A stretch of DNA of 64,000 nt. Origin: a virus. Made by a program: the position numbers and the translations under genes. A model generated the notes under the pieces. The model saw only the letters and a list, made by a program, of their open reading frames with translations, did not search any database and was not told where the DNA came from. Shown here piece after piece: positions 7,446 through 56,104 of the stretch. The DNA is taken from IMG/VR virus record IMGVR_UViG_3300036861_000477, one strand, 5' to 3'. How positions within the stretch are numbered: the first letter of the stretch is position 1; every line of letters starts with the position of its first letter.

Positions 7446-7457
7446 GTTGATCCCCCG

Positions 7458-8366: not shown

Positions 8367-8408
8367 TGCTCACTCCCTCCGTCGTCGTAGTAGTCGTCGG
8401 TCACCGGC

Positions 8409-35469: not shown

Positions 35470-35523
35470 GAGGACACATGCTCATCATCGTTGAAGATTT
35501 GTTCTTATGCTAGGATAATTAGT

Positions 35524-36030
35524 ATGGATCTTCATTCACATGTTGCTGAACTCTTTCCAGGTGATAAGCGTGTTCTTCAAAGAATTTTATTACACGCACT
35601 CATCGATTTGGGCCAAGTAACAAAACTTGAGTGTGCATGGGAAAATTGCGCACTACCAAACACATCTCTCAAGCCTGCGGGTAAAAGAGGCGCATGTGTC
35701 ACTTTCGATCACACTGTAGATCGTATGAGTGGCGGGCCAGATCATTGGCGTAACATCTTACTTATGCATCACACGTGTAACACACGAAAAGGTGCAGTAT
35801 TCACACCTGAACGTCGAGCAAAGATTAGCGCTAAAGTTCGTGAACGATGGCAAGATCCTGCATATGCGCAACGTGTAATTGACAAATCGGCTGAAGTATT
35901 ACGCACAAATGGATCATCACAACGAAAGAGTGAAGCAATGAAAAGACATTGGGCAGATCCAGAACGAAAAGCAGCGCACGCCGCAAAGCTTTCGCGGGGC
36001 GAATCTTGGCGAAAAGCTCGAGGTTTGTGA
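35524..36030 (+). mobile_element. Free-standing HNH homing endonuclease (NUMOD3-like C-terminus)
   Basis: TFDH...GG..HWRNILLMHHTCNTRK HNH motif; repeated RAKIS/RKSEAMK.HW.DP segments; AT-rich relative to flanks. Confidence 0.85.
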
Positions 36031-36995
36031 TGTTGATAATTTGTGAAGGTCCGGATGCGGCAGGTAAGTCGACGCTCGTTAGTCAGCTTCACGACGTCAT
36101 CACCCAGCGATACCCAACGTGGAAGGTCGAGGTACTCCACAAGGGACCACCCGCACCCGACGCTCATCCACTGGACGAGTACGAGCTTCCGCTCTTGTCG
36201 TACCGGCCGGGCCGCGAGCATGTGATCATCTGTGACCGCTGGCACATTGGTGAGTGGGTTTATCCGTTCATTCTCAAGCGAAAGACCCACGCGGACCGTG
36301 CGGTGTGGTATCACATCGAGCTGTTCCTCCAGTCACGGGGCGCGATCATCGTGCACCTTGGTGCCGATCCATCGGAGATCACACGCCGGCTCACCGAGCG
36401 TGGTGATGACCTCGTCTACCCGCACCAGGCAACGGCACTGGTCAACGGCTACGCGAATATGCGGCAGCATCACACGGTGAACTCGATCTACGCAACGCTC
36501 GGTGTCACGCCCGACTACATCGTGGATCAAGCCGTGATCACCGCTGTGCAGGCCGAACGACTCAACGAGTTCACCACGTACATTGGTGATCCTGTGCCAA
36601 GCACGATGCTTATGGGTGACGTGCGCAACGGCCTCGACCTATCGGACGAGTTCGTGAACGCGCGCGCTGATCTACGACCCGCGTTCATGCCGTACAAGGG
36701 CACGTCGGGGCACTACCTCTTTAGCTCACTCAAGCCCGAGCAGTTCCGCACCCTAGGTGTCGCGAACGCGTGTGACGTGGACAACATCGAGCGCATGCAC
36801 GCGATGCTCCACTTCCCATCTAGTGCGGCACTGGGAGTCAACGCCCAGCGGGCAACCGACTTCATGGCCGAGGTCAACGGCGTGCCTCATCCGCAGTTCA
36901 TCCGGCGGTTTCACAACAAGGCGGGACGACAGTACGCGCAGGCCATCGAGCGCACGCTCGTGGACGGAGAGGACAACAGCCAGTGGCGACCCTAA
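36030..36995 (+). CDS. dNMP (thymidylate-like) kinase fused to a UDG-superfamily-like domain
   Basis: EGPDAAGKST P-loop and CDRWH; C-terminal GD, PAF.P..GTSG..L, ALG..A and PHP motifs. Confidence 0.75.
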   Translation: MLIICEGPDAAGKSTLVSQLHDVITQRYPTWKVEVLHKGPPAPDAHPLDEYELPLLSYRPGREHVIICDRWHIGEWVYPFILKRKTHADRAVWYHIELFLQSRGAIIVHLGADPSEITRRLTERGDDLVYPHQATALVNGYANMRQHHTVNSIYATLGVTPDYIVDQAVITAVQAERLNEFTTYIGDPVPSTMLMGDVRNGLDLSDEFVNARADLRPAFMPYKGTSGHYLFSSLKPEQFRTLGVANACDVDNIERMHAMLHFPSSAALGVNAQRATDFMAEVNGVPHPQFIRRFHNKAGRQYAQAIERTLVDGEDNSQWRP

Positions 36996-37846
36996 TCACC
37001 GGTGCGAGTGGCATCGACGTGTATCGCCGACTTGTGAACTACGTGCTCGCCGGTGGTGATCGCCGGAACCCACGTGGTCTCGCGACGAACGACCTGGGCT
37101 ACACCACCGTGGAGCTCGATTCGCCCTACAACGCTCTTCCACTGGGTCTGGGTCGCAACCTCTCACGGCGCATCGCCGCGGCGGAGGCGGTGCAGCTCAT
37201 CGGAGCGTTCGCCGACCCGCAACTTCTCCTCGACGCGTCGCCCAACTTCAAGAACTACGTGGAGGACGACGGCACGTTCTGGGGTGCTTACGGTCGGCGC
37301 ATCGGAACCCAGCTGCGCGAGGCGTGCACCAAGCTCAGCCAGGACCACAGCACGCGCCAGGCCTTGATCACGCTATGGGATCCAATGCTGGACAACCAGC
37401 CGCACAAGCGTGACTACCCGTGCACGATGCTTCTGGGCTTCAGCTTTAGCCCGACGGGACTTCTCGAGCTCGACGTCACCATGCGATCCAACGACGTGTG
37501 GAAGGGATTTCCCTACGACATCTTCCAGTTCACGCAGCTGCAGCTCACCGTGGCTCGGCTGCTGAAGGTCGAACCGGGGCGCTATCGTCACCACACGTAC
37601 TCACTTCACATCTATGAGAGCGACGCACTGGCCGCCGCCGAGTTCATCCGGCGAAGTGATGTCGCACACACGGAGGAGCAACCGACGGGCTTCGGCGCGC
37701 CGGGCGATAACCTACTCACCATCCAGCAGCGAGCACGAACGGTTGCATATGCAACTACCGCTACGTCGTCCACCGACTCCGAGCGCTGGTACTGGCACGT
37801 TCTGCGTGGTGGCAAGCCTCAGCTCACCCTGGTGGATCCGCAGTGA
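36983..37846 (+). CDS. Thymidylate-synthase-family enzyme, predicted dCMP hydroxymethylase
   Basis: Catalytic PC; MRSNDVWKGFPYD places Asp at the position of E. coli ThyA Asn177; SLHIY. Confidence 0.8.
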   Translation: MATLITGASGIDVYRRLVNYVLAGGDRRNPRGLATNDLGYTTVELDSPYNALPLGLGRNLSRRIAAAEAVQLIGAFADPQLLLDASPNFKNYVEDDGTFWGAYGRRIGTQLREACTKLSQDHSTRQALITLWDPMLDNQPHKRDYPCTMLLGFSFSPTGLLELDVTMRSNDVWKGFPYDIFQFTQLQLTVARLLKVEPGRYRHHTYSLHIYESDALAAAEFIRRSDVAHTEEQPTGFGAPGDNLLTIQQRARTVAYATTATSSTDSERWYWHVLRGGKPQLTLVDPQ

Positions 37847-38442
37847 CTCGGCCAACGGATCACGAGCTGTTCATGGAGATGGCACACGTCGCAGCGAAGC
37901 GTAGCTTGTGCTCCCGTGACCAAGTCGGCGCGGTGATCGTGTCCGACGACCAGGTCGTCATCTCAACGGGTCGGAACGGTCCGCCACGGTTCTACCCACA
38001 CGACGAGCAACCGTGCACTGAGTGGTGTGACAGAGCTCGTAATGCCAAGTATCTCTCCATCGACTATGCCAAGGTGCCACCACAGGTACAGCTTGAAGTG
38101 ATCAACGGTGAGATCTATGATCACGGACGAGTCCTTGACCCCAAGCACTATAAGACCTTCGGCATCATCGAGGTGGACTCACCCAGCCCACGATACGATG
38201 ACTGTCCTAGTCTTCACGCGGAGGCGAATGCACTCCTCAGTGCCGAACGTTCAGAGCGACTTGGTGGTACGATCTACGTAACGAGCGCGATCTGCTTTGG
38301 ATGTGCGAAGCTCATCGCGAACTCGGGTCTCGTATCCGTCGTGATGCCCGCGTTCACGTATGAACAGGCGACGGCTCGTGGCTGGTCCAAGACGGAGGAG
38401 TTCTTCATGCTTCTGTCTATTAACGTAACAGTGCTTGACTAA
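37843..38442 (+). CDS. dCMP deaminase family protein
   Basis: SLCSRDQVGAVIV, GRNG.P, HAEANAL and C..C. Confidence 0.85.
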   Translation: MTRPTDHELFMEMAHVAAKRSLCSRDQVGAVIVSDDQVVISTGRNGPPRFYPHDEQPCTEWCDRARNAKYLSIDYAKVPPQVQLEVINGEIYDHGRVLDPKHYKTFGIIEVDSPSPRYDDCPSLHAEANALLSAERSERLGGTIYVTSAICFGCAKLIANSGLVSVVMPAFTYEQATARGWSKTEEFFMLLSINVTVLD

Positions 38443-38457
38443 GAGACGGAGAAGGAC

Positions 38458-38655
38458 ATGACATTCAACGTGCATCATCACGATCCCGACGAGACGCACG
38501 TCATCCCCAAGGTGACGGCACCTCGGCCGATCCAGACACCCTCACCTCGTAAGTCCAGCGACAAGGTGGGTCTGATCATGCTCGGCATGATCTGTGGCTC
38601 GGCGATTCTCATCGCGCTCATCTGCTCGATCGGAGCCGTTCGTGTCTTTGGGTAG
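38458..38655 (+). CDS. Small membrane protein
   Basis: C-terminal TM segment. Confidence 0.5.
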   Translation: MTFNVHHHDPDETHVIPKVTAPRPIQTPSPRKSSDKVGLIMLGMICGSAILIALICSIGAVRVFG

Positions 38656-38908
38656 TCGGCGTGAGCAACTGAATCAACACCTCTCAAACATCGACGAGGA
38701 GCTCGACCGGCTCGATCGCGAGGAACGTGCGCAGCGGCATCGACTCGACATCACCGATTTCAACGACGTTGGGCATCACGAACCCATCGACTGGGGTGCG
38801 CTTACCTGGGCGGGGATCATTCTTCTTAGTGGTGGGATCGTGCTACTCTCGCTCATTCTCCACGCCATCGACATCACGAAGTGGGTGTACCACATTGTCA
38901 CTGGATAA
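38648..38908 (+). CDS. Small membrane protein
   Basis: Coiled-coil N-terminus followed by a TM segment; start uncertain. Confidence 0.4.
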   Translation: MGSRREQLNQHLSNIDEELDRLDREERAQRHRLDITDFNDVGHHEPIDWGALTWAGIILLSGGIVLLSLILHAIDITKWVYHIVTG

Positions 38909-40700
38909 CGTCAAGCTCCACCTCATCGAGACGATGGACGACGTCGCGAAGTTCAACGACTGGCTGAACTCACGTGACCGCGACCAACTCGGCTTCGACA
39001 CAGAGACGACGGGTCTCGATCTCGAGAAGGACCACGTTCGCCTCGTGCAGATCGGCGATGAGGAGGACGGCTGGGCGATGTCCTGGGAACGCTGGTCCGG
39101 TGTGTTTGAGGACACTGTGAAAAAGTTCACGGGAAACTGGGTCGCGCACAACGCACCGTACGATCAGCACATGACCGCGAAAGCGGGCATCAAGGTCGAG
39201 CGATCACAGATCCTGGATGCCCGACCCATGGCGCACATCGTCGATCCCACGGGTTCCATGGCCCTGAAACCTCTGTCAGGTCGGTACGTCGATAAGCGCG
39301 CCGGCAACGCGCAGCAGGACCTCGACGACGGTGTCGCCAACTGGGGTTGGGCGAACATCCCGATCAACTTCGAGCCGTACTGGTCGTACGGCGCGCTGGA
39401 TCCCGTCCTGACGATGCAACTCGGACGAGAGCTCTGGACTCGCGTCGTGGATCACGGCGCGACGAAGGCGTTCGATGTGGAGAACGCCGTCCAGTGGATC
39501 ACGCACGACATGGGTCGCTACGGCACGAACATCGACACGCGGTACGCGCTAACGCACTACGAGAAGTTCAACGAGTACTGTGATCTAGCCGAGATGTGGT
39601 GTAAGAAGGAGTACAACGTCTCGCCCGGTTCGAACGCGGCGGTCATCAAGGTGCTCCACGAGGCGGGCGTCGAGTTCACGAAGCGCACCAAGGGTGGTGC
39701 CATCTCGTTGGACGCCGACGTGCTCGAGGGGATCGACCACCCACTCGCGCAGACCGTGCTCAAGCGCCGTAAGCTGCAAAAGCTCGCGTCTACATACCTC
39801 AAGCACTACATCACCGAGGTCGACGGTGACAGCCTCATCCATCCGTCGTTCAACACACTGGGTGCTCGCACGTCACGCATGTCGATGTCGAACCCGAACA
39901 TGCAGAACCTGCCACGTGTGAGCGAGTACAACCACGCGACCACCGTGATCCGCAACTGCGTGCACGCACGACCCGAGCACACGCTCATCTTCTGTGACTT
40001 CTCACAGATCGAGATGCGCATGCTCGCGTGGCTCTGCAAGGACCCGGGTCTCGTCGCCGCGTTCCTCTCCGGTGATGACTTCTTCGTGAGTCTGGCCCAG
40101 CAGGTGTACCACGACCTGTCGATCGATAAGAAGCATCCACTTCGCCAGCGAGTTAAGAACGTCGGCTACGCGAAGATCTACGGTGCGGGTGACGAGAAGA
40201 TCGCGGTCACCGCCGGTGTGCCGTACGCCGGGGGTCGTGCATCACGCATCGCGTTCGACCAGGCGTTCCCACTCGTATCCGAGTACGTGAACATCAACTT
40301 CCATGAGGCGATGCTCAACAAGTCCGTGTTCGGTTACCCATTCGTGAACTGCCCACTCACGGGTCGCCGGCATCCCGCGGACTCGGGTAAGGAGTACACA
40401 CTCGTGAACTTCCAGATCCAAGGTGCGGCGGCCGTGCTCTTTAAGATGAAGATGCTCGAGCTCGATCAAGCCGGACTTGGCCCGTGGATGATGCTCGCGG
40501 TACACGACGAGATTATTCTTGATGTTCCGAACGAATACGTGCCCGATGCGGTGCACAAGCTTCAGCAGGTAATGAATGACGATGTGATCATGGCCCCCGT
40601 GCCGATCACCGCCGAGGTGTCCTTCGGTCAGCGCTGGGGTGAGAAGCACGACTGGAACGAAGCTCTGTGGAGGGAGCTCACCTATGCCCAGGCCACTTAG
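38895..40700 (+). CDS. polA: Family A DNA polymerase with 3'-5' exonuclease
   Basis: FDTETTGLD, AHNA.YD, CDFSQIEMR, KNVGYAKIYG and VHDEI; start taken at TTG 38895. Confidence 0.93.
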   Translation: MSLDNVKLHLIETMDDVAKFNDWLNSRDRDQLGFDTETTGLDLEKDHVRLVQIGDEEDGWAMSWERWSGVFEDTVKKFTGNWVAHNAPYDQHMTAKAGIKVERSQILDARPMAHIVDPTGSMALKPLSGRYVDKRAGNAQQDLDDGVANWGWANIPINFEPYWSYGALDPVLTMQLGRELWTRVVDHGATKAFDVENAVQWITHDMGRYGTNIDTRYALTHYEKFNEYCDLAEMWCKKEYNVSPGSNAAVIKVLHEAGVEFTKRTKGGAISLDADVLEGIDHPLAQTVLKRRKLQKLASTYLKHYITEVDGDSLIHPSFNTLGARTSRMSMSNPNMQNLPRVSEYNHATTVIRNCVHARPEHTLIFCDFSQIEMRMLAWLCKDPGLVAAFLSGDDFFVSLAQQVYHDLSIDKKHPLRQRVKNVGYAKIYGAGDEKIAVTAGVPYAGGRASRIAFDQAFPLVSEYVNINFHEAMLNKSVFGYPFVNCPLTGRRHPADSGKEYTLVNFQIQGAAAVLFKMKMLELDQAGLGPWMMLAVHDEIILDVPNEYVPDAVHKLQQVMNDDVIMAPVPITAEVSFGQRWGEKHDWNEALWRELTYAQAT

Positions 40701-40941
40701 CGACTGGCTTCACACGCCCGTTGTCGTGCCGACCAGTGACACCAAGGCTGACAAGATCGACAAACTTACGCAGCATACGAAGTCGGTGACGCTCAACCCA
40801 CGACGTTGTACCGTGTCCGAGTGTGACGAGCTTCTCGATCCACGTACGTCAGTGCTGCGAGTGCTTCCCGATAAGACCATTGGAAGGATCTGCCCGTCGT
40901 GCGACTCACAGCTACGGACTCGCTCTGGATCATCGGAGTAG
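40684..40941 (+). CDS. Small Zn-binding protein
   Basis: C...C and CPSC motifs. Confidence 0.4.
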   Translation: MPRPLSDWLHTPVVVPTSDTKADKIDKLTQHTKSVTLNPRRCTVSECDELLDPRTSVLRVLPDKTIGRICPSCDSQLRTRSGSSE

Positions 40942-41375
40942 ACCCCGGTAAGGTGACGGGACTGGTCCTCTATCACGGGTGTAAGATCATCGATAAAGCG
41001 TCACTAAGCGTTGACGCTGTTGCGCCCTGGGTCACTCGACGACTCGATCGTATCGAGTCACCGTGTGATCCCAACGCGAAGGTGTTCATTGGGGTCGAGC
41101 GCTACAACATCGGTGGCAACACGGTGAAGATGAGTCGGCAACCGGACGCACTTGACGTCACCGGTCGACTTCGCAATGTTGCGCGCGGTCGTAGCAATGT
41201 AGCTGTGCGCACCTTCAACGCGTCCGACGCGAAGGCACTCGGAAGTCCTAAGACACTTCGTCGCATCGGCTGGTGGGTACCCGGACACCTTCACATCAGC
41301 GATGCGGCGGCGCAAGCTCTCATCACCTTAGCAACGGTGCGACCCAGTGAGTTCGAGCTGGTCATTGATGTGTGA
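40899..41375 (+). CDS. RuvC-like Holliday junction resolvase
   Basis: IIGVDPG..TG, VFIGVE and H..DAA. Confidence 0.75.
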   Translation: MRLTATDSLWIIGVDPGKVTGLVLYHGCKIIDKASLSVDAVAPWVTRRLDRIESPCDPNAKVFIGVERYNIGGNTVKMSRQPDALDVTGRLRNVARGRSNVAVRTFNASDAKALGSPKTLRRIGWWVPGHLHISDAAAQALITLATVRPSEFELVIDV

Positions 41376-41408
41376 TATAGTTCCATCAAGGACAAGAGGA
41401 GGACAAGG

Positions 41409-43277
41409 ATGCCAGTCGCTGAATTGAATGACGACGGAACACGAATCAACGTCCAGACCGTGTACACCGAGAAGGAGCTCATCAAGCGAGTTCCGGGTGC
41501 ACTCTACGACGGCACGCAGAAGATCTGGCACGTGCCTAAGACGTGGCCGGCGTGTCTCCAGCTCCGAGGTGTCTTCGGTACATCACTCACCATCGGTGAT
41601 GAGCTACGTAAGTGGGCAACACTGGAGCGCACCATGCGGGTGCAAAACATCCTAGAACTTCGCGATGTGCTTACGCCCGCGAACGTGATGCCGTGCTACT
41701 CACCTGATCTTTATCCATTCCAAGCCGCCGGTGTGGACTTCTTCAACGCCACGGGTCGCACGCTTCTTGGCGATGAGATGGGCACGGGCAAGACTATTCA
41801 AGCGCTTGAGACCCTACGACACGCGCACGAGCACGGCCCAGATGTTCTTCCTGCACTCGTGATCTGTCCCAACACTACGAAGTACAATTGGGAAGATGAG
41901 ACCGCACGCTGGTTCCCGGCCGTGCGCACCTACGTGATCTCGGGCGGTCTCGTCCAGCGGCGCAAGATCCTCAAGGCCGCGAGAGCCGATCCACTGGCGA
42001 TCGTCATCATCAACATTGAGGGTGTTCGTGGTCACTCGCGACTCGCGCCTTACGGCTCCGTTCGCCTTAAGCGCTGCGTCTCGTGCTCGGGTGGCGACGT
42101 CACCGCGGTCAGCGAGTCTCGTTGTGAAGTGCATCCCAAGGAGCTTAACGGGTTCGGGTTCAAGACGGTGATCTTTGATGAGGCGCACCGGATGAAGGAG
42201 CCGAAGGCACTCCAAACTCGCGCGGCTTGGGCGGTGGGGCATGACCCGTCGGTCACTGAACGGTGGGCACTCACCGGCACACCGATCGCCAACGACCCAT
42301 CGGACCTCTGGTCGCTTCTTCACTTCATCGACCCCATCGGGTTCCCGCGTCGATCGGCCTTCATCGACCGCTACTGCTTGCAATCGTGGAACAGCTACGG
42401 TGGCCTCTCCGTCATCGGTGTGAAGCCTGAGACCCGTGATGAGTTCCACGCGATCCTCAACACGTACTTCCGTCGTGTCACCAAGGCGATGGTCCTCGAC
42501 CAGCTGCCGAAGAAGGTTCGCACGACGATCCTCGTGGACATGGAGCCCAAGCAGGCGAAGGCGTACCAAGAGATGGGGGACAGCCTCGTCACGCGACTCG
42601 AGGACGGGCAGCTTCTCATCGCGCGATCGAACCTCGTCGCGCAGATTCGACTGCTCCAGCTCGCGGCGTCGTACTGCACCCTAGAGAAGCCCGACCCCGA
42701 AGATTCCAAGACGTGGATTCTCACACCGACCGATCCGTCACCGAAGATCGATGCACTCGTCGAGATCCTTGAGGATGCAGCGAAGCCGGTCGTCGTCGCA
42801 GCTGCCCAGCGCAAGCTTATCGAGCTCGCGTCAAAGCGACTTACCAAGCTCAAGATCCCGCACGCTCTCATCACGGGTAAGGTCGACGAGTGGGATCGTA
42901 AGAAGGCACTTGAGGACCTCAAGGACGGTCGCATCAAGGCACTCCTCTTCACGATGAAGGCGGGTGGTACGGGCCTCAACATGACCGCCGCCGACACGAT
43001 CGTCTTCCTACAGCGCGACTGGTCGATGATCGAGAACATCCAGTCCGAGGACCGGGTGCACCGCATCGGTTCCGAGATCCACGAGTCCATCAACGTGATC
43101 GACATCGTCGCACGTGGAACCGTCGAGGAAGACGTCATCCAGCGGTACGTGGAGAAGCGCGTGCGACTGGACGAGATCACTCGTGACCGTGAACGCCTTC
43201 GCGCACTGGGCCATACCACGACCGAGCTCGACGAGCTCGAGGCGTCACTCACTTCGGGATTCTTGGGGGAGCTGTGA
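41409..43277 (+). CDS. SNF2-family helicase
   Basis: GDEMGTGKT, DEAH, LTGTP, GGTGLNMT and QSEDRVHRIG. Confidence 0.92.
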   Translation: MPVAELNDDGTRINVQTVYTEKELIKRVPGALYDGTQKIWHVPKTWPACLQLRGVFGTSLTIGDELRKWATLERTMRVQNILELRDVLTPANVMPCYSPDLYPFQAAGVDFFNATGRTLLGDEMGTGKTIQALETLRHAHEHGPDVLPALVICPNTTKYNWEDETARWFPAVRTYVISGGLVQRRKILKAARADPLAIVIINIEGVRGHSRLAPYGSVRLKRCVSCSGGDVTAVSESRCEVHPKELNGFGFKTVIFDEAHRMKEPKALQTRAAWAVGHDPSVTERWALTGTPIANDPSDLWSLLHFIDPIGFPRRSAFIDRYCLQSWNSYGGLSVIGVKPETRDEFHAILNTYFRRVTKAMVLDQLPKKVRTTILVDMEPKQAKAYQEMGDSLVTRLEDGQLLIARSNLVAQIRLLQLAASYCTLEKPDPEDSKTWILTPTDPSPKIDALVEILEDAAKPVVVAAAQRKLIELASKRLTKLKIPHALITGKVDEWDRKKALEDLKDGRIKALLFTMKAGGTGLNMTAADTIVFLQRDWSMIENIQSEDRVHRIGSEIHESINVIDIVARGTVEEDVIQRYVEKRVRLDEITRDRERLRALGHTTTELDELEASLTSGFLGEL

Positions 43278-44224
43278 GGATCCGACGCATCTCGAACTCC
43301 GAGATCCAGACACACAAGGAGTGCCCACGTAAGTGGTGGCTGGCGTGGCATCGTGGTCTGCGACCACGTCGTCCCTCGGTACTTGGCGCGCTGGCCATAG
43401 GTACGCGAATCCACGTGGCTCTGGCCGGCTGGTACGTCCCTAGGGGTGAGAAACCCCGGGATCCGTTAGTTACCCTGACCGAGCTTCTGACCGAGGCTAG
43501 CAAGAGTCTCATGGCCGCGAACGCGACACCCGAAGAGTACAAGATCTTCGCGAGCGAAGCAAACCTGCAGGAGATCATGCTCGAGGGCTACATGGAGTGG
43601 ATCGCCGAGACGGGTGTGGACGAGCCGTATGAGGTGATCGAGTCGGAGTCGTACGTCGAGCGTGTGTTCATGGAGGTACCACTCTTCGATCTGCAGGTCG
43701 TGATCATTGGCCGGCTGGACGTTCGTCTTCGCCGCCTTAGTGACGGTGCGATCATGTTCCTCGATCACAAGACGACCGCGTCCATCCTCCAGTCGATCAA
43801 GGGTCTGCGGATGAACCCGCAGATGCGGATGTACCGGACTCTTCTTCACGGCGACGCAAACGAACCAGGTGGCGCGATCTACTCGATGATCCGCAAGGTG
43901 AAGCGAACGATCAAGGCAACACCGCCGTTTTACCACCGTGAAGAGTTGACCTTCAACCCACACGAACTCGAGAACTTCCAGCGGCAGCTTCGGGGAAGCA
44001 TCTCGAAGATCTTTATGGACGAAGAAAACCTCATCCAGGCACCCGAGGGTCATCATGTGTTCGTGCCACCCACCCCGGGTTCACACTGCAGCTACTGCCC
44101 GTTCGAGCGAGCGTGTCCGATGTTCGACGACGGCTCACGGGTCGAAGACTTCATCAATGAGAACTTTATCGTTGGTGAGGCGTTAGAGTACTACGGAAGG
44201 GAGGACCTCACACGGCATGGCTGA
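43274..44224 (+). CDS. Cas4/RecB-like PD-(D/E)XK exonuclease
   Basis: CPRKWWL, GRLDV...DHKT, QMRMY and C..CPF...C. Confidence 0.85.
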   Translation: MRIRRISNSEIQTHKECPRKWWLAWHRGLRPRRPSVLGALAIGTRIHVALAGWYVPRGEKPRDPLVTLTELLTEASKSLMAANATPEEYKIFASEANLQEIMLEGYMEWIAETGVDEPYEVIESESYVERVFMEVPLFDLQVVIIGRLDVRLRRLSDGAIMFLDHKTTASILQSIKGLRMNPQMRMYRTLLHGDANEPGGAIYSMIRKVKRTIKATPPFYHREELTFNPHELENFQRQLRGSISKIFMDEENLIQAPEGHHVFVPPTPGSHCSYCPFERACPMFDDGSRVEDFINENFIVGEALEYYGREDLTRHG

Positions 44225-44960
44225 AGATGAAGAGATCCTGTCGATGCTCATCCACGCGGGATCGAAGCAGGGTAAGTCCACACTCGCCAGCACGGCACCG
44301 TTGCCGCTGCTCGTGCTCGATGCGGAGGGTTCGTGGAAGTTCATCCGTGAGGCGGGCTTCAAGTCGGGAGTGCCTCTGCGGAAGATCAAGTGGAATCCTC
44401 TCTCGGAGGAGATCCCACAGCACGACGGAACGTGGGACGTCTGCGTCGTCAACGTGCGAGACTGGCAGACGATGGTGATGGTGTACCAGCACCTCACACA
44501 GCGGCAGCACCAGTTTCGCACGATCATCTGGGACTCGATCACCGAGGTCCAGCGCAAGTGTCGCGCCGCACTCAAGGGAGCCGACGCGATGCAGATCCAG
44601 GACTGGGGTGTCCTACTCACGCAGATGGACGACCTCATCCGCAAGTACCGTGACTTGACCCTCATCGGCGGCAGCATCAAGTGTGCCATTTTCATCGCCG
44701 AGACGAAGATGAAGGAGGGTAAGTGGCGGCCCCAGATGCAGGGCCAGATCGGTGATTCACTGCCGTACTGGGTCGACATCTGCGGATGGCTCTACACGAT
44801 GTTCACCAATGACGAATCGGGTCAGCCGACCGTCGTACGCAAGGTGCTGCACATCGGGCCCAGTGACCACTGGGAGTCCGGTGAACGAGTCCAAGGCGCG
44901 CTTCCTGAGGCCATCCTCGATCCGAACATCGGTAGTATGATCAAGGCCGTCTACACGTAA
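44217..44960 (+). CDS. AAA ATPase (Sak4/AAA_24-like recombination protein)
   Basis: GSKQGKSTLA, LDAEG and IIWDSITE. Confidence 0.8.
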   Translation: MAEDEEILSMLIHAGSKQGKSTLASTAPLPLLVLDAEGSWKFIREAGFKSGVPLRKIKWNPLSEEIPQHDGTWDVCVVNVRDWQTMVMVYQHLTQRQHQFRTIIWDSITEVQRKCRAALKGADAMQIQDWGVLLTQMDDLIRKYRDLTLIGGSIKCAIFIAETKMKEGKWRPQMQGQIGDSLPYWVDICGWLYTMFTNDESGQPTVVRKVLHIGPSDHWESGERVQGALPEAILDPNIGSMIKAVYT

Positions 44961-45006
44961 CCAACACAACCACAATCGACACACAACCACAAGCAAAGGA
45001 ACTGAA

Positions 45007-45612
45007 GTGGCAGACCTGAACTTCAAGCAACTCCGCCAGGACGCGATGACCGTGATCACCGGTCTGTTCGTGGCAAGCATCGTCGAGGCGACGGTGGTGA
45101 CGAACTCCAAGGGCAATCCGATGATCAAGACGAAGTGGAAGATCCAGTCGGGTCCGTATGCCGGCCGGCCGCTCTACAACAACTTCAACATCACGGTGGA
45201 CTCCCCCGCGGCGCTGAAGATGTTCTTCGGTCAGATGAGCATCCTCGGGATGGACGCGGCGTATTTCGACCGGCTGCCGAGTGGTGACGCCGGTGTGAAC
45301 CAGATCGCCCGGGACATGATCGGCAAGACTGCCGAGCTGAAGGTCGGTTCGCGCATGTGGAACGGCACCGAGCAAGAGAACATCGAGGAGATCCGTGCTG
45401 CGCCTGCCGGTTTCGGCGGTTCCGGCCCGGCCACCGGTGGTGTACTCCCGCAGGCGCTGCCCGCGCAGACCTCCAGCACCCCCGTCGCGGTCGCTACCAC
45501 TCCCGCCGCAGTTCCGTCCGCAACCCCCGCGTCGGTGACTTCGGCTCCCGCTGAGCCCGTGACCGTCTCGCCGGCGTCGCCGTCATCGCCGCCGCCCAGC
45601 GATCCGTTCTAG
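45007..45612 (+). CDS. SSB-like OB-fold protein (DUF669-like)
   Basis: SKGNPMIK.KW.I..GPYAGR motif; low-complexity Pro/Ala/Ser tail ending in PF. Confidence 0.65.
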   Translation: MADLNFKQLRQDAMTVITGLFVASIVEATVVTNSKGNPMIKTKWKIQSGPYAGRPLYNNFNITVDSPAALKMFFGQMSILGMDAAYFDRLPSGDAGVNQIARDMIGKTAELKVGSRMWNGTEQENIEEIRAAPAGFGGSGPATGGVLPQALPAQTSSTPVAVATTPAAVPSATPASVTSAPAEPVTVSPASPSSPPPSDPF

Positions 45613-45624
45613 TTCCAGCGAACG

Positions 45625-45664
45625 TGGTATAGTCAGGGTGGAGCCCACAAATTGGGCTCCACCC
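45625..45664 (+). promoter_or_regulatory. Extended -10 promoter followed by a 12-bp hairpin at the head of the glycosylation operon
   Basis: TG-G-TATAGT at 45625-33; GGGTGGAGCCCA-caaat-TGGGCTCCACCC. Confidence 0.55.
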
Positions 45665-45693
45665 GTGTTCATTAAGAGACGAGAGGACAACGA

Positions 45694-47040
45694 GTGGGAC
45701 GCAACATTCTCTACGGCAAGCTTGGGCGAAGCATGCCTCTCACACTGGAAAAGTGTGGAACCCTCGGCGGTGACATCGAGATGTCGGCCGTCTTGACCCT
45801 ACTAGCGAACAGGTATCCCGACGATCGGATCATCCTTATCGGCCGCAACTCCGGTGAGGATCCCCGAGCGATCGGCCTGCCGGCGAACGTGTACAACCCG
45901 TGGCACGTGTTCGGTGATGATGTTCGACGAGACCTCAAGCAGCTCGGGTTCAAGGGCAACATGACCCCCACCGAGCAGCATCGCTACGGTGACGTGATCG
46001 ACAAGTACACGCTGCCGTACTTTCACGCGGCCGATGCGATCGTCATGTGGGTGGGCCAGCACGGCACGTCCAACCATCCACTCCCCAAGGTCGAGGATCG
46101 TTCGGTCTGGACGAAGCCGCAGGATGCGTTCGCCCACTACGCCGGATTCATCCTCCGCGGCATCAATGAGTGGCGCGAGATCAACCCGCTCGAGCGTGAG
46201 GAGATCTGGCTCAACGCCGACCCGCGCAACTACCACAAGATGCGCGACCTCAAGTGGCCACTTCGTCACCCGATCCTCACGCAGTACAACTTCACGCACG
46301 CGATCAAGCACGAGCGCTACGAGGACACGATTCCGCCAGGAATACTGGGTTTTGAGCACTACGCGAAGGCCGTGAACGGCGTTTGGGAGTCCACGACCAG
46401 CAACGTGTACTCACGCCTCGAGCTCAATGCACTCGTGCCGGGCACGCCCAGTGGCGACCTGCTCTCGTACAACAACTCGTGGGAGGGACGCGAGCCGTTC
46501 GGTCTCGTGATCAACGAGGCACGCGCGATCGGTCTGCCACAGCGTAAGACGCGGCTCCAGATCATGCACGACTGGGTAATGCCGCTTAACCCACACTTCA
46601 TCCACGGCACGTGGTCGAACGAGGCCATGGGAAGTCTTCAGGGCCGCTGGGGCATCAAGAAGATTACTTCACTTCCGTGGCACTTCTACACCGCTACGAT
46701 GCACCGTGTTCTCTCTACGTTCACGACACCGTCCAGTGGTTCCGGCTGGGCGACGACGAAACCGTGGGAGGCGTTCGGACTCGGCGTGGTTTGCTTCTTC
46801 CATCCGGACTACGACGACCAGGACAACATCCTGCGTGATGCTCCGAGGGATCTGCACGAGTGGCTTCGCCCGCGAACCCCAGGTGACCTCGCGAAGCGCG
46901 TGCGACACCTGAGCACCCCCGCAGGCCGGTCCGACTGGGAGGCTCTCGTCGCACTCCAGTACGATCACTTCCGCAAGAACGTCGACGATCCACTGTTTAT
47001 GTCATACATTAACTACCGCTTGGAGGGTTCTTACTCGTGA
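45694..47040 (+). CDS. GT-B glycosyltransferase resembling T4 DNA beta-glucosyltransferase
   Basis: C-terminal WATTKPWEAFGLGVVCFFHPDYD...GDLAKRVRHL...LVALQYDHF parallels recalled T4 BGT FITLRVWETMASDAVMLIDEEFD...AELIDRVNEL...MLSIQHDIL. Confidence 0.65.
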   Translation: MGRNILYGKLGRSMPLTLEKCGTLGGDIEMSAVLTLLANRYPDDRIILIGRNSGEDPRAIGLPANVYNPWHVFGDDVRRDLKQLGFKGNMTPTEQHRYGDVIDKYTLPYFHAADAIVMWVGQHGTSNHPLPKVEDRSVWTKPQDAFAHYAGFILRGINEWREINPLEREEIWLNADPRNYHKMRDLKWPLRHPILTQYNFTHAIKHERYEDTIPPGILGFEHYAKAVNGVWESTTSNVYSRLELNALVPGTPSGDLLSYNNSWEGREPFGLVINEARAIGLPQRKTRLQIMHDWVMPLNPHFIHGTWSNEAMGSLQGRWGIKKITSLPWHFYTATMHRVLSTFTTPSSGSGWATTKPWEAFGLGVVCFFHPDYDDQDNILRDAPRDLHEWLRPRTPGDLAKRVRHLSTPAGRSDWEALVALQYDHFRKNVDDPLFMSYINYRLEGSYS

Positions 47041-48101
47041 AGACCGCTGTCATCATGCCGACCATTCGTGTGCCGCAGAACATCGCGGCGTGGATGGCGC
47101 TGCTCGACCCCGAGACCGACGTGGTCATCATCGCCGGCAACGCGAAGTCTCCGCACGTCGACATTCTCGACCGCCTCGACGAGTTCGCCGTGCCGTCGAT
47201 CTACCTACACCCGGAGCAGATGAAGCCCTGGGCAATCGATGAGTTCATGGAGCCGAACCACACGCATCGGCGCAACTTCGCACTCCTCGAGGCGATCAAG
47301 TTTCAGCCGGACGTGCTCGTCACCATCGATGACGACAACTTCCCGTACATGTCGACGTGGCTTCAGGGCGTGAAAGCCTTGCTCACGGAACCGAACCGCC
47401 GGCCGCTGATCTTCTCGGCGAACGGGTGGTGGAACCCGGGTAACATCTGCTCACCCCGGGTGCTCCACCGTGGGTTCCCCCTCAAGCACCGCGATGAGCA
47501 GACCACCGTCGAGTTGCAGGCCGACAACGAACGGATCGGCGTCGTCGCGAGTCTCTGGCTCGGTGATCCGGACATCAACGCGTTCGAGCGCATCTACAAT
47601 GACCCGCAGGTGCAGCACGTCAACGGATCGGTGACGCTCGGCAAGGGCGTGTGGGCACCGTTCGACTCGCAGTCAACGGCGCTTGCCGGCGAACTCGCGC
47701 CTCTTCTCTACATGTGGCCCGGTGTCGGACGGTATGACGACATCTGGTCATCATACGTCGCACGTGCGGTGATGGACTTGACCGGCTGGTACGTCACGTA
47801 CGGCCACCCCACGGTGATCCAAACGCGTAACCCGCACAACCTTATCCGTGACCTCAAGGACGAGCTCTACGGGTATGAGCACACCGAAGAGCTGTGCGAC
47901 AACCTCCGCGGCATCGTTGAAGACATGGGCACCACGGGACAGCTCCGGCAGCCGTCGGTACTGCAGGTGTTCACGGAGGTTACAGAACGACTCTGGGACA
48001 TCAAGGTAATCCCGTATCGCACCCGTGAGAGCTTCATGGCGTGGCTCGAGGACCTCCAGACCCTGCACACCTACGGTAACCTTAAGGAGGGCACAGTCTG
48101 A
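47037..48101 (+). CDS. RGP/GT75-like protein (UDP-arabinopyranose mutase-like, GT-A fold)
   Basis: PTIR, TIDDD, RGFP, LWLGDPD and GRYDDIW match recalled plant RGP motifs PTIR, TIDDD, RGYP, LWLNIPD and GRYDDMW. Confidence 0.7.
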   Translation: MKTAVIMPTIRVPQNIAAWMALLDPETDVVIIAGNAKSPHVDILDRLDEFAVPSIYLHPEQMKPWAIDEFMEPNHTHRRNFALLEAIKFQPDVLVTIDDDNFPYMSTWLQGVKALLTEPNRRPLIFSANGWWNPGNICSPRVLHRGFPLKHRDEQTTVELQADNERIGVVASLWLGDPDINAFERIYNDPQVQHVNGSVTLGKGVWAPFDSQSTALAGELAPLLYMWPGVGRYDDIWSSYVARAVMDLTGWYVTYGHPTVIQTRNPHNLIRDLKDELYGYEHTEELCDNLRGIVEDMGTTGQLRQPSVLQVFTEVTERLWDIKVIPYRTRESFMAWLEDLQTLHTYGNLKEGTV

Positions 48102-48583
48102 TGGACCGCCTTGCGGGCATGCTCAACAAGCAGTCATTGCTGCAGTCGAGCACGTACAAGAATCACATCGAGTTCATGACCGATGAAGAGCGCGTCGAGT
48201 TCATCCGCATGAATGTGCTCGCGCTCACCGACGAGCTTCACGAGGCTCTTGCCGAGACCGGCTGGAAGCCGTGGGCCACCAGTAAGCACGTCAACGATGA
48301 AGCGTACTTCGGTGAGCTCGTCGACGCGTGGCACTTCCTCATGAATCTCATGCTCGCCGTGGGCGCGAACCCGTCGGACGTCGCGACCATGCTCTACGAG
48401 CGCTACACCGACAAGCACAACATCAACATCCAGCGGCAGGTTGACGGCTACGACGGTGTCTCCACGAAGTGCCCGGGTTGCGGTCGAGCACTCGACGATG
48501 ATGCGGTGAAGTGCTTCGTGTATCCACTCGGTGCAGACGCGTGGTGTGATACGAACCACAAGAACATTCGCCTCAAAGGTTGA
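48101..48583 (+). CDS. All-alpha dNTP pyrophosphatase (dCTPase/dUTPase type)
   Basis: DELHEAL...GWKPW and GELVDAWHFLMNL. Confidence 0.8.
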   Translation: MDRLAGMLNKQSLLQSSTYKNHIEFMTDEERVEFIRMNVLALTDELHEALAETGWKPWATSKHVNDEAYFGELVDAWHFLMNLMLAVGANPSDVATMLYERYTDKHNINIQRQVDGYDGVSTKCPGCGRALDDDAVKCFVYPLGADAWCDTNHKNIRLKG

Positions 48584-48596
48584 TAAGGTTCGATCC

Positions 48597-50126
48597 ATGC
48601 GTGCGGTTGATGTTCTCGGGTTTGCCGGCGGATTTACACTCGGTACGGTTCAGGCGGGCTTTGAGCTTGTCGGCAAGCGTGAGATGAAGGGCGGTTTTGG
48701 TGTCGCGAACTGCGAGGCCAACCGCCATCTTCTCGGGTACGGCTGGAAGTCCGAAGCGTGCGATCAGGCGGACTGGTCGCCGGTCGATGCAGAGGTGGTC
48801 TTCGGTAACCCTCCCTGTTCGGGCTTCAGTGTGATGTCCGCAAAGGAATTTCGTGGAGCGGATTCGAAGATCAATCATTGCATGTGGGCCTTCGCCGACT
48901 ACGTCATTAAGGTGAAACCCCTGATCGCGGTCTTCGAGTCCGTCCAGCCGGCTCGCACGCGACCCGACGGACATGCCCTCATGCGTCGCCTGCGTGATCA
49001 CGTCGAAGCGGGAACGGGTCTCAAGTACACCCTCCACCACGTGCTCCACAACGCCTACTCCATCGGCGGCTGTGCCCAGCGTCGGCGTTACTTCTGGGTC
49101 ATCTCACAGATGCCCTTTGGAATCGAACCTCCCAAGCACGACCGCTACCCAACCCTACTCGACGCGATCGGCGACCTCAGAGGACTTCAGAACACCTGGA
49201 GTTCCCAGCCCTATATCGAACAACCGAGCTGGTGGGCGGAGGACCGTCGAAGTGGCTCAGACCAGGTAGATGGGCATGCTAGCATCGACAACCCGTTGAC
49301 CGGACGGATTCGTGACCTGATCGTCGGTGCTGGCTGGAAAGAACGAGAGCATATTGCCCTCGTCGCAAAGCGGCACTACACCCAGCACGGGAAGCTGCCG
49401 GACTCGTGGCGAGACACCGAAGCGAAGCTCGTCAAGCAGGACTTTTTCATGGGATTCACCACTCCGGTGCGCTGGCCAGGGGATGAGGCCGCACGCGTCA
49501 TCACGGGTGGTGGACTTGTGATGGTCGTTCATCCCACCGAAGATCGTACGATCACACACCGTGAGGCAGCACGCATCCTCGGTTTTCCGGATGACTGGCT
49601 GATCGAACCACTTCGTGGTGTGCCCGGCCTGGGTATGACGTGGGGCAAGGGCATCACGGTCGACTGCGGTCAGTGGATCGCCGACTGGATCAAGCGCGCA
49701 CTTGAGGGAGATCCCGGGTACTACGTGGGCGTGCCGATCGGTGAGCGCGAGTTTGACATCGATGTCACCAGTGCGTGGAAGGGCTCCTGGTATAGTAAGA
49801 CAAGTCGCACCACCCTTACGAAAGTGTCATCTACGAGAGGAACCACCATGACGGAGCCGGAGACCCCCGAGGTCACCGAGACCAAGGCCGGCCGGCCGCG
49901 TTCGACCCAGACGCTCGAGCGCGACGAGAAGGTTTTCGAGATCCTGTCCACCGGCGCGAAGACCCGAGTCGCCGTCGGCGAGGTGCTCGGTGCCACTCCC
50001 GCGGAAGCCTACCTCAGCCTCGATCGCCTGCGGACCGCCGGCCGCGCAAAGTCCGAACGGCGCGACGGCAAGTTCGTCTGGTTCCGGCCGGACGTGCCGG
50101 AGCCCGAGCCGGTCGCTGCCGAGTAA
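48597..50126 (+). CDS. Atypical DNA cytosine-C5 methyltransferase with in-frame C-terminal winged-helix
   Basis: GNPPCSGFS, VFESV, QRRRYF and REAARILGFP; motifs I and X are degenerate. Confidence 0.8.
   Translation: MRAVDVLGFAGGFTLGTVQAGFELVGKREMKGGFGVANCEANRHLLGYGWKSEACDQADWSPVDAEVVFGNPPCSGFSVMSAKEFRGADSKINHCMWAFADYVIKVKPLIAVFESVQPARTRPDGHALMRRLRDHVEAGTGLKYTLHHVLHNAYSIGGCAQRRRYFWVISQMPFGIEPPKHDRYPTLLDAIGDLRGLQNTWSSQPYIEQPSWWAEDRRSGSDQVDGHASIDNPLTGRIRDLIVGAGWKEREHIALVAKRHYTQHGKLPDSWRDTEAKLVKQDFFMGFTTPVRWPGDEAARVITGGGLVMVVHPTEDRTITHREAARILGFPDDWLIEPLRGVPGLGMTWGKGITVDCGQWIADWIKRALEGDPGYYVGVPIGEREFDIDVTSAWKGSWYSKTSRTTLTKVSSTRGTTMTEPETPEVTETKAGRPRSTQTLERDEKVFEILSTGAKTRVAVGEVLGATPAEAYLSLDRLRTAGRAKSERRDGKFVWFRPDVPEPEPVAAE
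49848..50126 (+). CDS. Nested in-frame winged-helix protein (likely also made separately)
   Basis: GAGAGG RBS and ATG 49848 inside the MTase frame; TG-G-TATAGT at 49788-96. Confidence 0.55.
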   Translation: MTEPETPEVTETKAGRPRSTQTLERDEKVFEILSTGAKTRVAVGEVLGATPAEAYLSLDRLRTAGRAKSERRDGKFVWFRPDVPEPEPVAAE

Positions 50127-54208: not shown

Positions 54209-55285
54209 TTAGCGAGTGTTCTGAAGCCCTAGCGGGTTCTTGTGCACGGACTTACCCGCTTCAGCCCATGCTTCCGCCCAGCGCCACGCGTTGTCCTCAA
54301 TCGTGAGGCGTTCACGCACGATCTGACGATCGCGCTCGCTCTCCTCCTGCCGACGGCGCCAGTTCGTCGCTAGATCGGTCACGATGCGTGTCCACTGGAC
54401 GTGGCTCTTGGCAATGTTGCCGATGCCGTACTGCCGCTGAAGCTTCACGTACTCGACACGTTCGGACGAAACACTGGGTACGCCCAGCGCCGCATACTCG
54501 AGAGGCTTGAGCCACGACTTCGCGGAGTTGAAACGAGTGTCCGCCGTGGGTGCAAGTCCCACGCCCACTTGGTTGAGCGCCGCCGGCCACTCGTGGAAAT
54601 CCACCCCACCGGTAACACTGACAAGTGGTGTAATGACAGATCCCAGCGCGTCGATGACGCCCAGGTGGGGTCCCACGATGCGAAAGTGAATGCCCGCACG
54701 GATCCACTTCGGAAGCGAGCGACTCAATTCCTGCACGTCCTGTGGGTGCGTCTGGATCGCGCCACCCCACGCGACGATCGCGCTATCGTGATGCTCGTAC
54801 TGCGTGAATTGCTTCGGTACGAAGTTCGGCAGCACCACACTCTTACTGCCATACACCTTCTGCAACGCCGGTGTCGACACGGTGACCAGCGTTGCGGCAC
54901 GACACGTGTCGACCACGTTCTGCCACGAGTGATCACGCTGCCCGGTGGTCGGGTGAAGCATCCGCCACGCGGGATGCAGCGGATCGATCGCCGATAGATC
55001 ATCATCCATGTCGATAATGACGGCGATGCCCTTCTTCTGTATGAGCTTCACTGCCTGTGTGAGGTAGCGATGCGTCGTTCGCTGGAGCACGATCACGTCC
55101 GCGTCGGGTGGCACCTGGATGTCCACCATCGTGTCGCGCACCATACTCGCCTTGAACTGCTCACGCTGACTCTTCGGACTTATGATCACCACATCGTGGC
55201 CCTGGGCCTTAAGTGCGAGAGCGGGCCAGATGAGCCGATAGTAGCCGCAGCCGGTGATATCCGCGGGATACACGTACACCTTCAC
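54209..55285 (-). CDS. GT-B (GT4-like) glycosyltransferase
   Basis: GCGYYRL, DMDDD and KSWLKPLEYAALGVP. Confidence 0.85.
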   Translation of the reverse strand: MKVYVYPADITGCGYYRLIWPALALKAQGHDVVIISPKSQREQFKASMVRDTMVDIQVPPDADVIVLQRTTHRYLTQAVKLIQKKGIAVIIDMDDDLSAIDPLHPAWRMLHPTTGQRDHSWQNVVDTCRAATLVTVSTPALQKVYGSKSVVLPNFVPKQFTQYEHHDSAIVAWGGAIQTHPQDVQELSRSLPKWIRAGIHFRIVGPHLGVIDALGSVITPLVSVTGGVDFHEWPAALNQVGVGLAPTADTRFNSAKSWLKPLEYAALGVPSVSSERVEYVKLQRQYGIGNIAKSHVQWTRIVTDLATNWRRRQEESERDRQIVRERLTIEDNAWRWAEAWAEAGKSVHKNPLGLQNTR

Positions 55286-55512
55286 TGCATTTCCTCCGCG
55301 GCTTCTTCCATGTACCACTTCCACCAGTTACGTGCGTACACGTAACCGTAGGCGAACGCGGAGATGATAAAACCCCACTGACGCGTGTACAGACCGTAGG
55401 CGACCCAGAGAATCTGTGCGAGGAAGTTGATCATCCAGCCGATCTTCAAGCGTGATCCGGCGAGTAAGAGACCCGTGACGCCAATGCCCGCGAGTACGAA
55501 CGACCAGATCAT
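55282..55512 (-). CDS. Small PnuC-like membrane protein
   Basis: Two to three TM segments; GW....Q.LW..Y......G pattern. Confidence 0.55.
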   Translation of the reverse strand: MIWSFVLAGIGVTGLLLAGSRLKIGWMINFLAQILWVAYGLYTRQWGFIISAFAYGYVYARNWWKWYMEEAAEEMQ

Positions 55513-55516
55513 GTCA

Positions 55517-56092
55517 TCACCACTTCGTGGGAAGACCACTGGTGTTGCCCTGGTGATGGCACCAGAACCACGTCCGCTCGACGAGGTGTGAAATCTTCGC
55601 GCCGGCCTCAATGCAACCCAGTGTGAAGAACCGGTCCTCACCCGAGTTGATGTTGTGCCCGCGGTTCAGCGCTTGGAAGCCGACCTGCTTCGCGAGCTCC
55701 GTTCGGACGAGTGTGGTGATCGTCGTCTCGATCGGGTTCGCTGGATCGAACGGTTCGGTGAAGTGTGTGGAAGGGAACGGGTCGCCACCGCCGAGCATCT
55801 CGAACCACGAGTACACGAAGTCCGCCTCGGTCTCTAACGCATGCGCCAGCAGACGCTCGAGATGCTGAGTCTTGAACATGTCGTCGTCATCAAGGAACGC
55901 GACCCAGGGCGTGGTAACCGCGTCCAGAGCTCTCTGTCGCGTGGCCGCGGCACCTTCCCGATGGGTATCAACGGCGATGGAGATCGCGGCCGCGGGAAGA
56001 GTCTGACGGGCGACACTGCCGATGGCTCGTTCCAGCAGGTGCGGACGAACGGGGATGGACGGGATGACCACCGTGATGTCATTCTCTGTCAT
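55517..56092 (-). CDS. GT2 glycosyltransferase
   Basis: ITVVIP, GAAATRQ and VAFLDDDD. Confidence 0.85.
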   Translation of the reverse strand: MTENDITVVIPSIPVRPHLLERAIGSVARQTLPAAAISIAVDTHREGAAATRQRALDAVTTPWVAFLDDDDMFKTQHLERLLAHALETEADFVYSWFEMLGGGDPFPSTHFTEPFDPANPIETTITTLVRTELAKQVGFQALNRGHNINSGEDRFFTLGCIEAGAKISHLVERTWFWCHHQGNTSGLPTKW

Positions 56093-56104
56093 AGTGCTAC
56101 TCTA

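Follow-up and report, generated by a model that had tools for sequence, protein, structure and literature searches.

The 64,000-nucleotide viral sequence IMGVR_UViG_3300036861_000477 (hereafter the window), which occurs only as assembled contigs from soil metagenomes, carries on its + strand a set of genes that probably specify a two-stage cytosine hypermodification of the T4 type, in which cytosine would be replaced by 5-hydroxymethylcytosine (hmC) and a sugar then added, in an uncultured soil siphovirus of actinobacteria. An earlier note on the same DNA had proposed hmC followed by glycosylation, and this interpretation gains support from an active-site signature, homology to T4 gp56, the beta-glucosyltransferase (BGT) fold of a glycosyltransferase, the presence of a GT75-family protein and the exchange of sugar-donor genes among relatives, all of them computational lines of evidence. 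Attachment of the sugar as a furanose, which that note had also raised, we infer more tentatively, as a possibility that we place short of an even chance. The genes concerned are the following:

36030-36995, + strand: kinase fused to a second domain (YorR/thymidylate-kinase-like plus UDG-superfamily fold)
36983-37846, + strand: ThyA-family enzyme (Pfam PF00303)
37843-38442, + strand: deoxycytidine monophosphate (dCMP) deaminase (Pfam dCMP_cyt_deam_1, PHROG)
38727-40700, + strand: family A DNA polymerase (Pol A) with 3'-5' exonuclease (Pfam DNA_pol_A, DNA_pol_A_exo1)
45694-47040, + strand: 448-residue GT-B glycosyltransferase (by fold; no family match by sequence)
47037-48101, + strand: GT75 (RGP/UAM/MtdL) family protein (Pfam RGP and STELLO, match to MtdL)
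48101-48583, + strand: all-alpha dimeric dUTPase/dCTPase-family pyrophosphatase (Pfam dUTPase_2, PHROG dUTPase)
48531-50126 (open reading frame; likely 48597-50126), + strand: C5-cytosine methyltransferase homolog (Pfam DNA_methylase)

Open reading frame listing and family searches recovered on the + strand every gene that had been named before, at or near the positions given for it. The short overlaps reported earlier were present as described: a GTGA at 37843-37846 joins the ThyA-family and deaminase genes, another at 47037-47040 joins the genes of the 448-residue transferase and the GT75 protein, and a TGATG at 48099-48103, behind AGGAGG, joins the latter to the pyrophosphatase gene. The kinase and ThyA-family genes overlap by 13 nt, and the methyltransferase homolog probably starts at the ATG at 48597, the point from which the Pfam match extends.

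Predicted dCMP hydroxymethylase and nucleotide-pool enzymes

The ThyA-family enzyme matches Pfam PF00303 (Thymidylat_synt) with an E value of 3.8e-17 and 62.7 bits (cut-off 24.3), scores far under every NCBIfam thymidylate synthase cut-off, and has as its best solved relative the CMP hydroxymethylase MilA (PDB search, E 1.6e-12). Three diagnostic positions of such enzymes, 177, 143 and 169 in E. coli numbering, have been described by Lee et al. (2026, PMC13326640): Asn177 goes with dUMP as the substrate and Asp177 (N177D) with dCMP; Leu143 is found with methyl products, and Asp or Glu143, through access of water, with hydroxymethyl or other non-methyl products; and D169N marks the flavin-dependent 5-hydroxy-dCMP synthases of phages RB69, DLP3 and RL38JI. 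Alignment with E. coli ThyA, T4 gp42 and RB69 gp48, taken from annotated records, rendered L143D, Cys146, Asp169 and N177D, which is the exact pattern of T4 gp42. In the numbering of the protein itself, these are Asp144 (motif KRDYPC, as in T4 gp42, with Asp also in MilA), the catalytic Cys147, Asp171 (motif RSND, as in T4 gp42, where RB69 gp48 has RSQN) and Asp179 (motif FPYDIF). Both the Asp at the Asn177 position and its meaning for the choice between dUMP and dCMP, on which the earlier proposal had been built, are borne out by this alignment and by the published rule.

The D143/C146/D169/D177 signature was invariant among about 40 homologs from related contigs, as well as in Actinomycetia phage DSL-LC01 and the Gordonia phages GodonK and GMA2. 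The gp100 homolog of Bacillus phage CP-51, included as a control, combined Asn177 with Asp143, the pattern of a dUMP hydroxymethylase; the DNA of CP-51 contains hydroxymethyluracil (hmU). In each of five related genomes, four of them at least 97% complete, the enzyme was encoded by the sole ThyA-family gene and a ThyX was found in one, which argues that it is not the thymidylate synthase of the phage. By the residue rules, it is predicted to be a dCMP 5-hydroxymethylase of the T4 gp42 type. An identity as an RB69-type 5-hydroxy-dCMP synthase was rejected, since Asp and not Asn is found at position 169 in all relatives. The annotated 'thymidylate synthase' of DSL-LC01 (15001-15861), GodonK (13956-14840) and GMA2 (13977-14819) also has Asp143, Asp169 and Asp177, and, if our reading is true, these and hence several such GenBank entries are probably misannotated dCMP hydroxymethylases, judging from these residues; GodonK and GMA2, which lack the transferase, may carry bare hmC.

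The kinase gene, previously described as that of a deoxynucleoside monophosphate kinase, does encode a kinase domain, of the YorR/thymidylate-kinase (Tmk) type, in residues 1-180, but the protein proved to be a two-domain fusion, in which an exhaustive structural search recognised a UDG-superfamily fold in residues ca. 175-313. The structural model shows the two domains with a confidence (pLDDT) of 89; a protein-atlas search with the C-terminal domain gave no usable match. YorR was the top structural match of the kinase, as it was for the kinases encoded beside the DLP3 and RB69 ThyA homologs. The kinase is predicted to phosphorylate 5-hydroxymethyl-dCMP (5hm-dCMP), and the UDG-fold domain may read or remove unmodified pyrimidines.

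The deaminase matches Pfam dCMP_cyt_deam_1 (E 7.7e-16) and the PHROG dCMP deaminase profile (E 1.4e-33), and has the zinc motifs HAE and CFGC (CxxC). It contains an insertion of about 60 residues between the N-terminal helix and the HAE motif, and among the NCBIfam models it comes nearest to one for the deaminase domain of an anti-phage dCTP deaminase, at E 2.4e-19 but with a score well short of the cut-off. The pyrophosphatase matches Pfam dUTPase_2 (E 1.9e-13, 51.4 bits) and PHROG dUTPase (E 6.9e-44), and the dCTPase/dUTPase assignment made before was confirmed by BLASTP, which identified it as a direct homolog of the T4 gp56 dCTPase (28% identity over almost the whole length, E 1e-8); T4 gp56, too, is recognised as a dUTPase_2 member. 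By homology, the protein is predicted to remove dCTP, and dUTP, from the nucleotide pool. The freshwater podovirus MW202510 (Manatee Spring), which is unrelated, encodes at 4938-9165 an NTP-pyrophosphatase, a thymidylate kinase, a 'pyrimidine hmase' with Asp143, Asp169 and Asp177, a dCMP deaminase and a DNA polymerase in the same order, which indicates that the nucleotide half of the module travels widely.

Pol A (Pfam DNA_pol_A E 8e-64, DNA_pol_A_exo1 E 2e-11) is closest, at 31-37% identity, to the enzymes of Micrococcus, Arthrobacter, Microbacterium, Gordonia and Streptomyces phages. Since it is nearest to actinophage enzymes and relatives of the source phage encode WhiB, the label 'actinophage' is reasonable.

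Glycosyltransferase, sugar-donor genes and the methyltransferase homolog

The 448-residue transferase is one of at least 738 metagenomic proteins that form a family without a Pfam domain. A model built from an alignment of 40 family members (pLDDT 87.5) has a GT-B fold, for which T4 BGT holds Foldseek ranks 1-6; in a search of viral models, a 'DNA beta-glucosyltransferase' ranks second, with a TM score of 0.69. T4 BGT is the best solved match by two methods, ahead of other GT-B families, and the BGT-like assignment made before stands at the level of the fold, the relationship being invisible to Pfam and to PDB sequence search. With hhalign, the family aligned to T4 BGT with 54% probability over 54 C-terminal columns, which cover only the C-terminal nucleotide-sugar motif, and tblastn against phage records gave a single distant match, in a Pseudoalteromonas phage. 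From the model, we predict a DNA hmC glycosyltransferase that is BGT-like by fold and forms a separate sequence family.

The product of the next gene matches Pfam RGP marginally (24.0 bits, cut-off 23.8) and STELLO, and in a PDB sequence search it matches MtdL with an E value of 1.2e-30; a profile of the family matches MtdL at E 5e-58 and the plant UDP-arabinopyranose mutase 8cid at E 1e-4. A phmmer search with the N-terminal 110 residues gave no alignment to the N-terminus of MtdL, whereas the family profile did align. The roles of the catalytic residues of MtdL have been described (PMC9937993), including an autoglycosylated Arg159 and a Mn-coordinating His287. The protein keeps the DDD motif, Arg159, Asp195, Ser228-Gln229, Arg257, Asp260, Arg289 and His292 (MtdL numbering), a set that is invariant among 120 relatives, and the earlier description of an RGP-like protein can be made precise as that of a GT75 member with nearly all the catalytic residues of MtdL. 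It has Thr at the position of MtdL Asp87, which is not disqualifying, since active plant enzymes have Ser there (PMC9937993). The protein is predicted, from these similarities, to be a nucleoside diphosphate (NDP)-sugar pyranose-to-furanose mutase that would supply the transferase.

Comparison of the GT75 proteins of the source phage and 33 related loci rendered two subtypes. One has Thr13 and Asp40, as in the GDP-using MtdL, and is present in all 19 loci that include an SDR epimerase. The other, to which the protein of the source phage belongs, has Pro13, as in the plant UDP-using enzymes, and Asn40, and is found without an epimerase in 11 loci out of 11. These differences suggest that the two subtypes may use different nucleotide carriers.

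Searching IMG/VR with an alignment of the transferase yielded 67 loci, among which co-occurrence was counted only where enough flanking sequence was available. The transferase was accompanied by the ThyA homolog in 36 of 40 loci, by Pol A in 38 of 40, by the gp56 homolog in 40 of 42 and by the methyltransferase homolog in 41 of 42. The gene-neighbourhood search that had been proposed as a check thus found the module recurring across related IMG/VR loci, and the same order in dozens of related contigs is far more than expected by chance. The hydroxymethylase and deaminase genes are adjacent in all relatives, and in nearly all of them the transferase gene, flanked by those of DUF669 and the dCTPase homolog, lies within the replication/nucleotide module.

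Variation within this conserved module is confined to a slot beside the transferase. It may hold GT75 alone, GT75 together with an SDR (NAD-dependent) epimerase/dehydratase, or an NTP_transferase, with a separate protein or a fused kinase-like domain, plus a SIS isomerase. The last cassette resembles gp53 (E 6e-6), gp52 (E 5e-6) and gp55 (E 3e-14) of RB69, which constitute a UDP-arabinofuranose route (PMC13326640); the 282- and 203-residue slot proteins of two loci showed no significant similarity to RB69 gp52 or gp55. In DSL-LC01 (OQ999401), the gene order is the same and the slot holds a glycosyltransferase and a flavin-dependent UDP-galactopyranose mutase (UGM). The slot is empty in two related loci, and in some GT75 lies upstream of the transferase. 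By sequence similarity, the slot cassettes appear to supply nucleotide sugars, and those that can be recognised would lead to furanoses. The best case for a phage-made donor of the transferase, and for a furanose as the sugar here, comes from the exchange of one set of sugar-donor genes for another at this slot.

The methyltransferase homolog (48597-50126) matches Pfam DNA_methylase (E 8e-19), carries a C-terminal extension of about 140 residues, and scores 42.5 bits with NCBIfam dcm, below the cut-off of 100.65. Aligned to HaeIII and HhaI, it has motifs I (FAGG), IV (NPPC), VI (FES), VIII (RRR) and IX (REAARILGFPDDW), all of them invariant in 49 relatives, with the catalytic Cys, the S-adenosylmethionine (SAM)-binding motif and the RxR motif intact. 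Where canonical enzymes have PCQ, ENV and GN, it has PCS, ESV and GKG; PPC-S, E-S-V, RxR and G-K-G are invariant in 49 of 49 sequences of the homolog, all of which have Lys at the position of HhaI Asn304. At this position CmoX has the likewise basic Arg350 (PMC12783734), and the engineered M.MpeI N374K has the same Lys, the site being one that switches enzymes to carboxy-SAM. CmoX has an SPPC motif in contrast to NPPC here, SpCmoX (8YF3) is absent from the PDB sequence matches of the homolog, and neither the window nor any of 68 related loci gave a tblastn match to E. coli CmoA. An identity as a CmoX-type carboxymethyltransferase was rejected because there is no SPPC, the residue is Lys rather than Arg, and these sequences yielded no CmoA.

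Proposed pathway and alternative readings

In the pathway that we propose, the gp56-like pyrophosphatase would, by homology, convert dCTP, and dUTP, to the monophosphate, and the ThyA-family enzyme, judging from homology and signature residues, would hydroxymethylate dCMP at C5. The YorR/Tmk-like kinase would then form the diphosphate and a host kinase 5hm-dCTP, from which the phage Pol A would incorporate hmC in DNA, while the dCMP deaminase would feed dUMP to the host thymidylate synthase, balancing the pools as T4 cd does. After replication, the BGT-like GT-B enzyme would, as its fold and neighbourhood suggest, link a sugar to hmC in DNA through its hydroxymethyl group, using an NDP-furanose donor that the GT75 enzyme, encoded by the translationally coupled gene, would have formed from a host NDP-pyranose. 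The product would be furanosyl-hmC DNA resistant to restriction enzymes and other nucleases. A fuller proposal can be put forward with less assurance, as one that we think somewhat more likely to fail than to hold: the virion base would be 5-(glycofuranosyl-oxymethyl)cytosine, its donor would be made by a metal-dependent GT75 mutase recruited by phages, and a large clade of soil actinophages would vary its DNA coat by exchanging cassettes for furanose donors (GT75, GT75 plus epimerase, an arabinose-5-phosphate route, flavin UGM) next to one conserved BGT-like transferase. Moreover, the Lys-variant methyltransferase homolog may add a second, non-methyl group to residual cytosines.

Several observations weigh against glycosylated hmC or against its furanose form. 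The phage is known from soil metagenome contigs alone. The transferase found no match in Pfam, PHROG, NCBIfam or PDB sequence searches and lies outside the BGT (GT63) sequence family. In the GT75 protein, the Mn-binding His287 of MtdL is replaced by Gln262, with Gln in 118 of the 120 relatives, and the loss of the corresponding His in AtRGP5 has been tied to inactivity (PMC9937993); given this replacement and base-recognition residues unlike those of MtdL or of the plant enzymes, its mutase activity is not assured. The four glycosyltransferases encoded at 54209-57312 indicate that the phage also glycosylates something else, and sugar-donor genes need not serve DNA only. Finally, a methyltransferase homolog with an intact Cys is conserved in the module, yet fully hmC-substituted DNA would offer it no substrate; either some cytosine escapes replacement, or the enzyme has different DNA as its target, or its role lies elsewhere.

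It could be the case that hmC DNA is made but the transferase and the GT75 protein decorate virion proteins or the host envelope, leaving bare hmC in the DNA. The second glycosylation cluster on the minus strand, the retention of the kinase, ThyA(Asp) and deaminase genes without the transferase in GodonK and GMA2, and the two loci with an empty slot would fit such a situation; the position of the transferase inside the replication/nucleotide module in nearly all relatives, the DNA enzyme T4 BGT as its best structural match, ahead of other GT-B families, and the encoding of the structural-side glycosyltransferases elsewhere and on the opposite strand make it unlikely. A partial replacement, with the methyltransferase homolog modifying leftover cytosines in a motif, would add a second layer to glycosylated hmC rather than displace it. 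It would account for an enzyme with an invariant catalytic Cys and non-canonical motifs in nearly every locus, but a gp56 homolog normally drives complete replacement and a gene for a CmoA-like cofactor enzyme was found neither in the window nor in the related loci; we regard it as quite unlikely.

Two further alternatives concern the base itself. The deaminase might act on 5hm-dCMP to give 5hm-dUMP, so that thymine, or both pyrimidines, would be replaced, the sugar would be placed on hmU, and cytosine would be left free for the methyltransferase homolog. dCMP deaminases can accept 5-substituted dCMP, the hydroxymethylase gene is translationally coupled to the deaminase gene in the window and adjoins it in all relatives, and the conservation of the methyltransferase homolog would be explained. 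However, in known hmU phages it is dUMP itself that is hydroxymethylated, by an enzyme with Asn177 such as the CP-51 homolog; in T4 a dCMP deaminase likewise accompanies the hmC pathway; and no dTTP- or dTMP-removing enzyme was identified. These points render this outcome very improbable. The least probable of the readings considered is that the ThyA homolog is a dCMP methylase of the XP12 type, making 5-methylcytosine, or a 5-hydroxy-dCMP synthase of the RB69 type. Asp177 alone fixes only the cytosine substrate, and RB69-type arabinose genes do occupy the slot of some relatives. Nevertheless, the residue at position 143 is not bulky and hydrophobic but the Asp that T4 gp42 and MilA also have, and a methyl group would give the glycosyltransferase no acceptor; at position 169 all members have Asp, in contrast to the Asn of each 5-hydroxy-dCMP synthase tested.

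Known systems and genomic context

The glucosyl-hmC system of T4 follows the same logic and uses the same enzyme families for four steps, with an identical ThyA active-site signature, a gp56 enzyme and a dCMP deaminase in common, and a BGT that is the best structural match of the transferase. On the other hand, T4 is a T4-like myovirus with Pol B, while the module described here belongs to a siphovirus of ca. 60-75 kb that infects an actinobacterium and has Pol A; the kinase, instead of being gp1-like, is of the Tmk/YorR type and has a UDG-fold domain fused to it; a sugar-donor enzyme (GT75) is encoded, where T4 uses host UDP-glucose; the transferase has 448 residues and belongs to a separate sequence family; and the C5-methyltransferase homolog is part of the module. 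The arabinosyl-5-hydroxycytosine phages RB69, DLP3 and HY126 and the hexosyl-5-hydroxycytosine phage RL38JI (PMC13326640) likewise cluster a ThyA homolog, a Tmk-like kinase, GT-B transferases and sugar-donor genes, and RL38JI carries an NDP-sugar pyranose-furanose mutase; here the mutase would be a metal-dependent GT75 enzyme and not a flavin UGM, and Asp169, in place of the RB69-type Asn169, predicts hydroxymethylation rather than flavin-dependent hydroxylation. MtdL/Hyg20 and the plant RGP/UAM proteins act in antibiotic or cell-wall synthesis (PMC9937993), in contrast to the DNA-modification context proposed for the phage protein.

The Gordonia phages GodonK and GMA2 share with the source phage the module of kinase, ThyA(Asp), deaminase and Pol A, and neither they nor DSL-LC01 or LuckyBarnes have the 448-residue transferase family or the GT75 enzyme; the mutase of DSL-LC01 was interpreted as a host cell-wall gene. 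The Brevibacterium phage LuckyBarnes was predicted to encode a dCMP hydroxymethylase and two glycosyltransferases (PMC6588365). The suggestion that such DNA might be undescribed in actinophages accordingly holds for the chemistry, chemical analyses of such an actinophage having been absent from the searchable literature, but not for the prediction, in which LuckyBarnes takes precedence. The logic of T4 and the sugar-donor cassettes of RB69, DLP3 and RL38JI were already known; what is new is the pairing of an hmC signature with genes for furanose donors, the association of GT75 with DNA modification, the transferase family, the fusion of kinase and UDG-fold domains, and the scale of the clade in soil.

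To our knowledge, the T-even-type phages of Gram-negative bacteria are the only ones in which glycosylated hmC has been demonstrated chemically, with glucose as the sole sugar. If the reading proposed here is true, hmC-based DNA camouflage would be common in soil actinophages, given that hundreds of metagenomic relatives carry the transferase, and the sugar would be varied through cassette exchange at one locus. GT75 mutases would also acquire a third biological role, besides plant cell walls and two antibiotic pathways, and the new transferase family and its donors could become tools for hmC labelling.

The + strand between ca. 34 and 53 kb constitutes the replication arm of the phage, with the structural genes to its left on the minus strand. 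A megablast search with the 14-kb block against 50,697 phage records gave no match. Other features of the region are:

35491-36030, + strand: HNH endonuclease, directly upstream of the kinase gene
40899-45612, + strand: replication/recombination block with a RuvC-like protein, an SNF2 helicase, a PD-(D/E)XK nuclease, an AAA_24 RecA-like ATPase and DUF669 (Pfam)

The latter block separates the two modification blocks and is syntenic in DSL-LC01, GodonK and GMA2, and a 33% identical homolog of the HNH endonuclease is found in the same place in GMA2 (12591-13118). The second glycosylation cluster (54209-57866, minus strand) encodes a GT4-like protein, three GT2 proteins and a class I methyltransferase, and its target may be virion proteins or the host envelope. 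A similar cluster is present in relatives, in one of them together with an NMN-transporter-like membrane protein.

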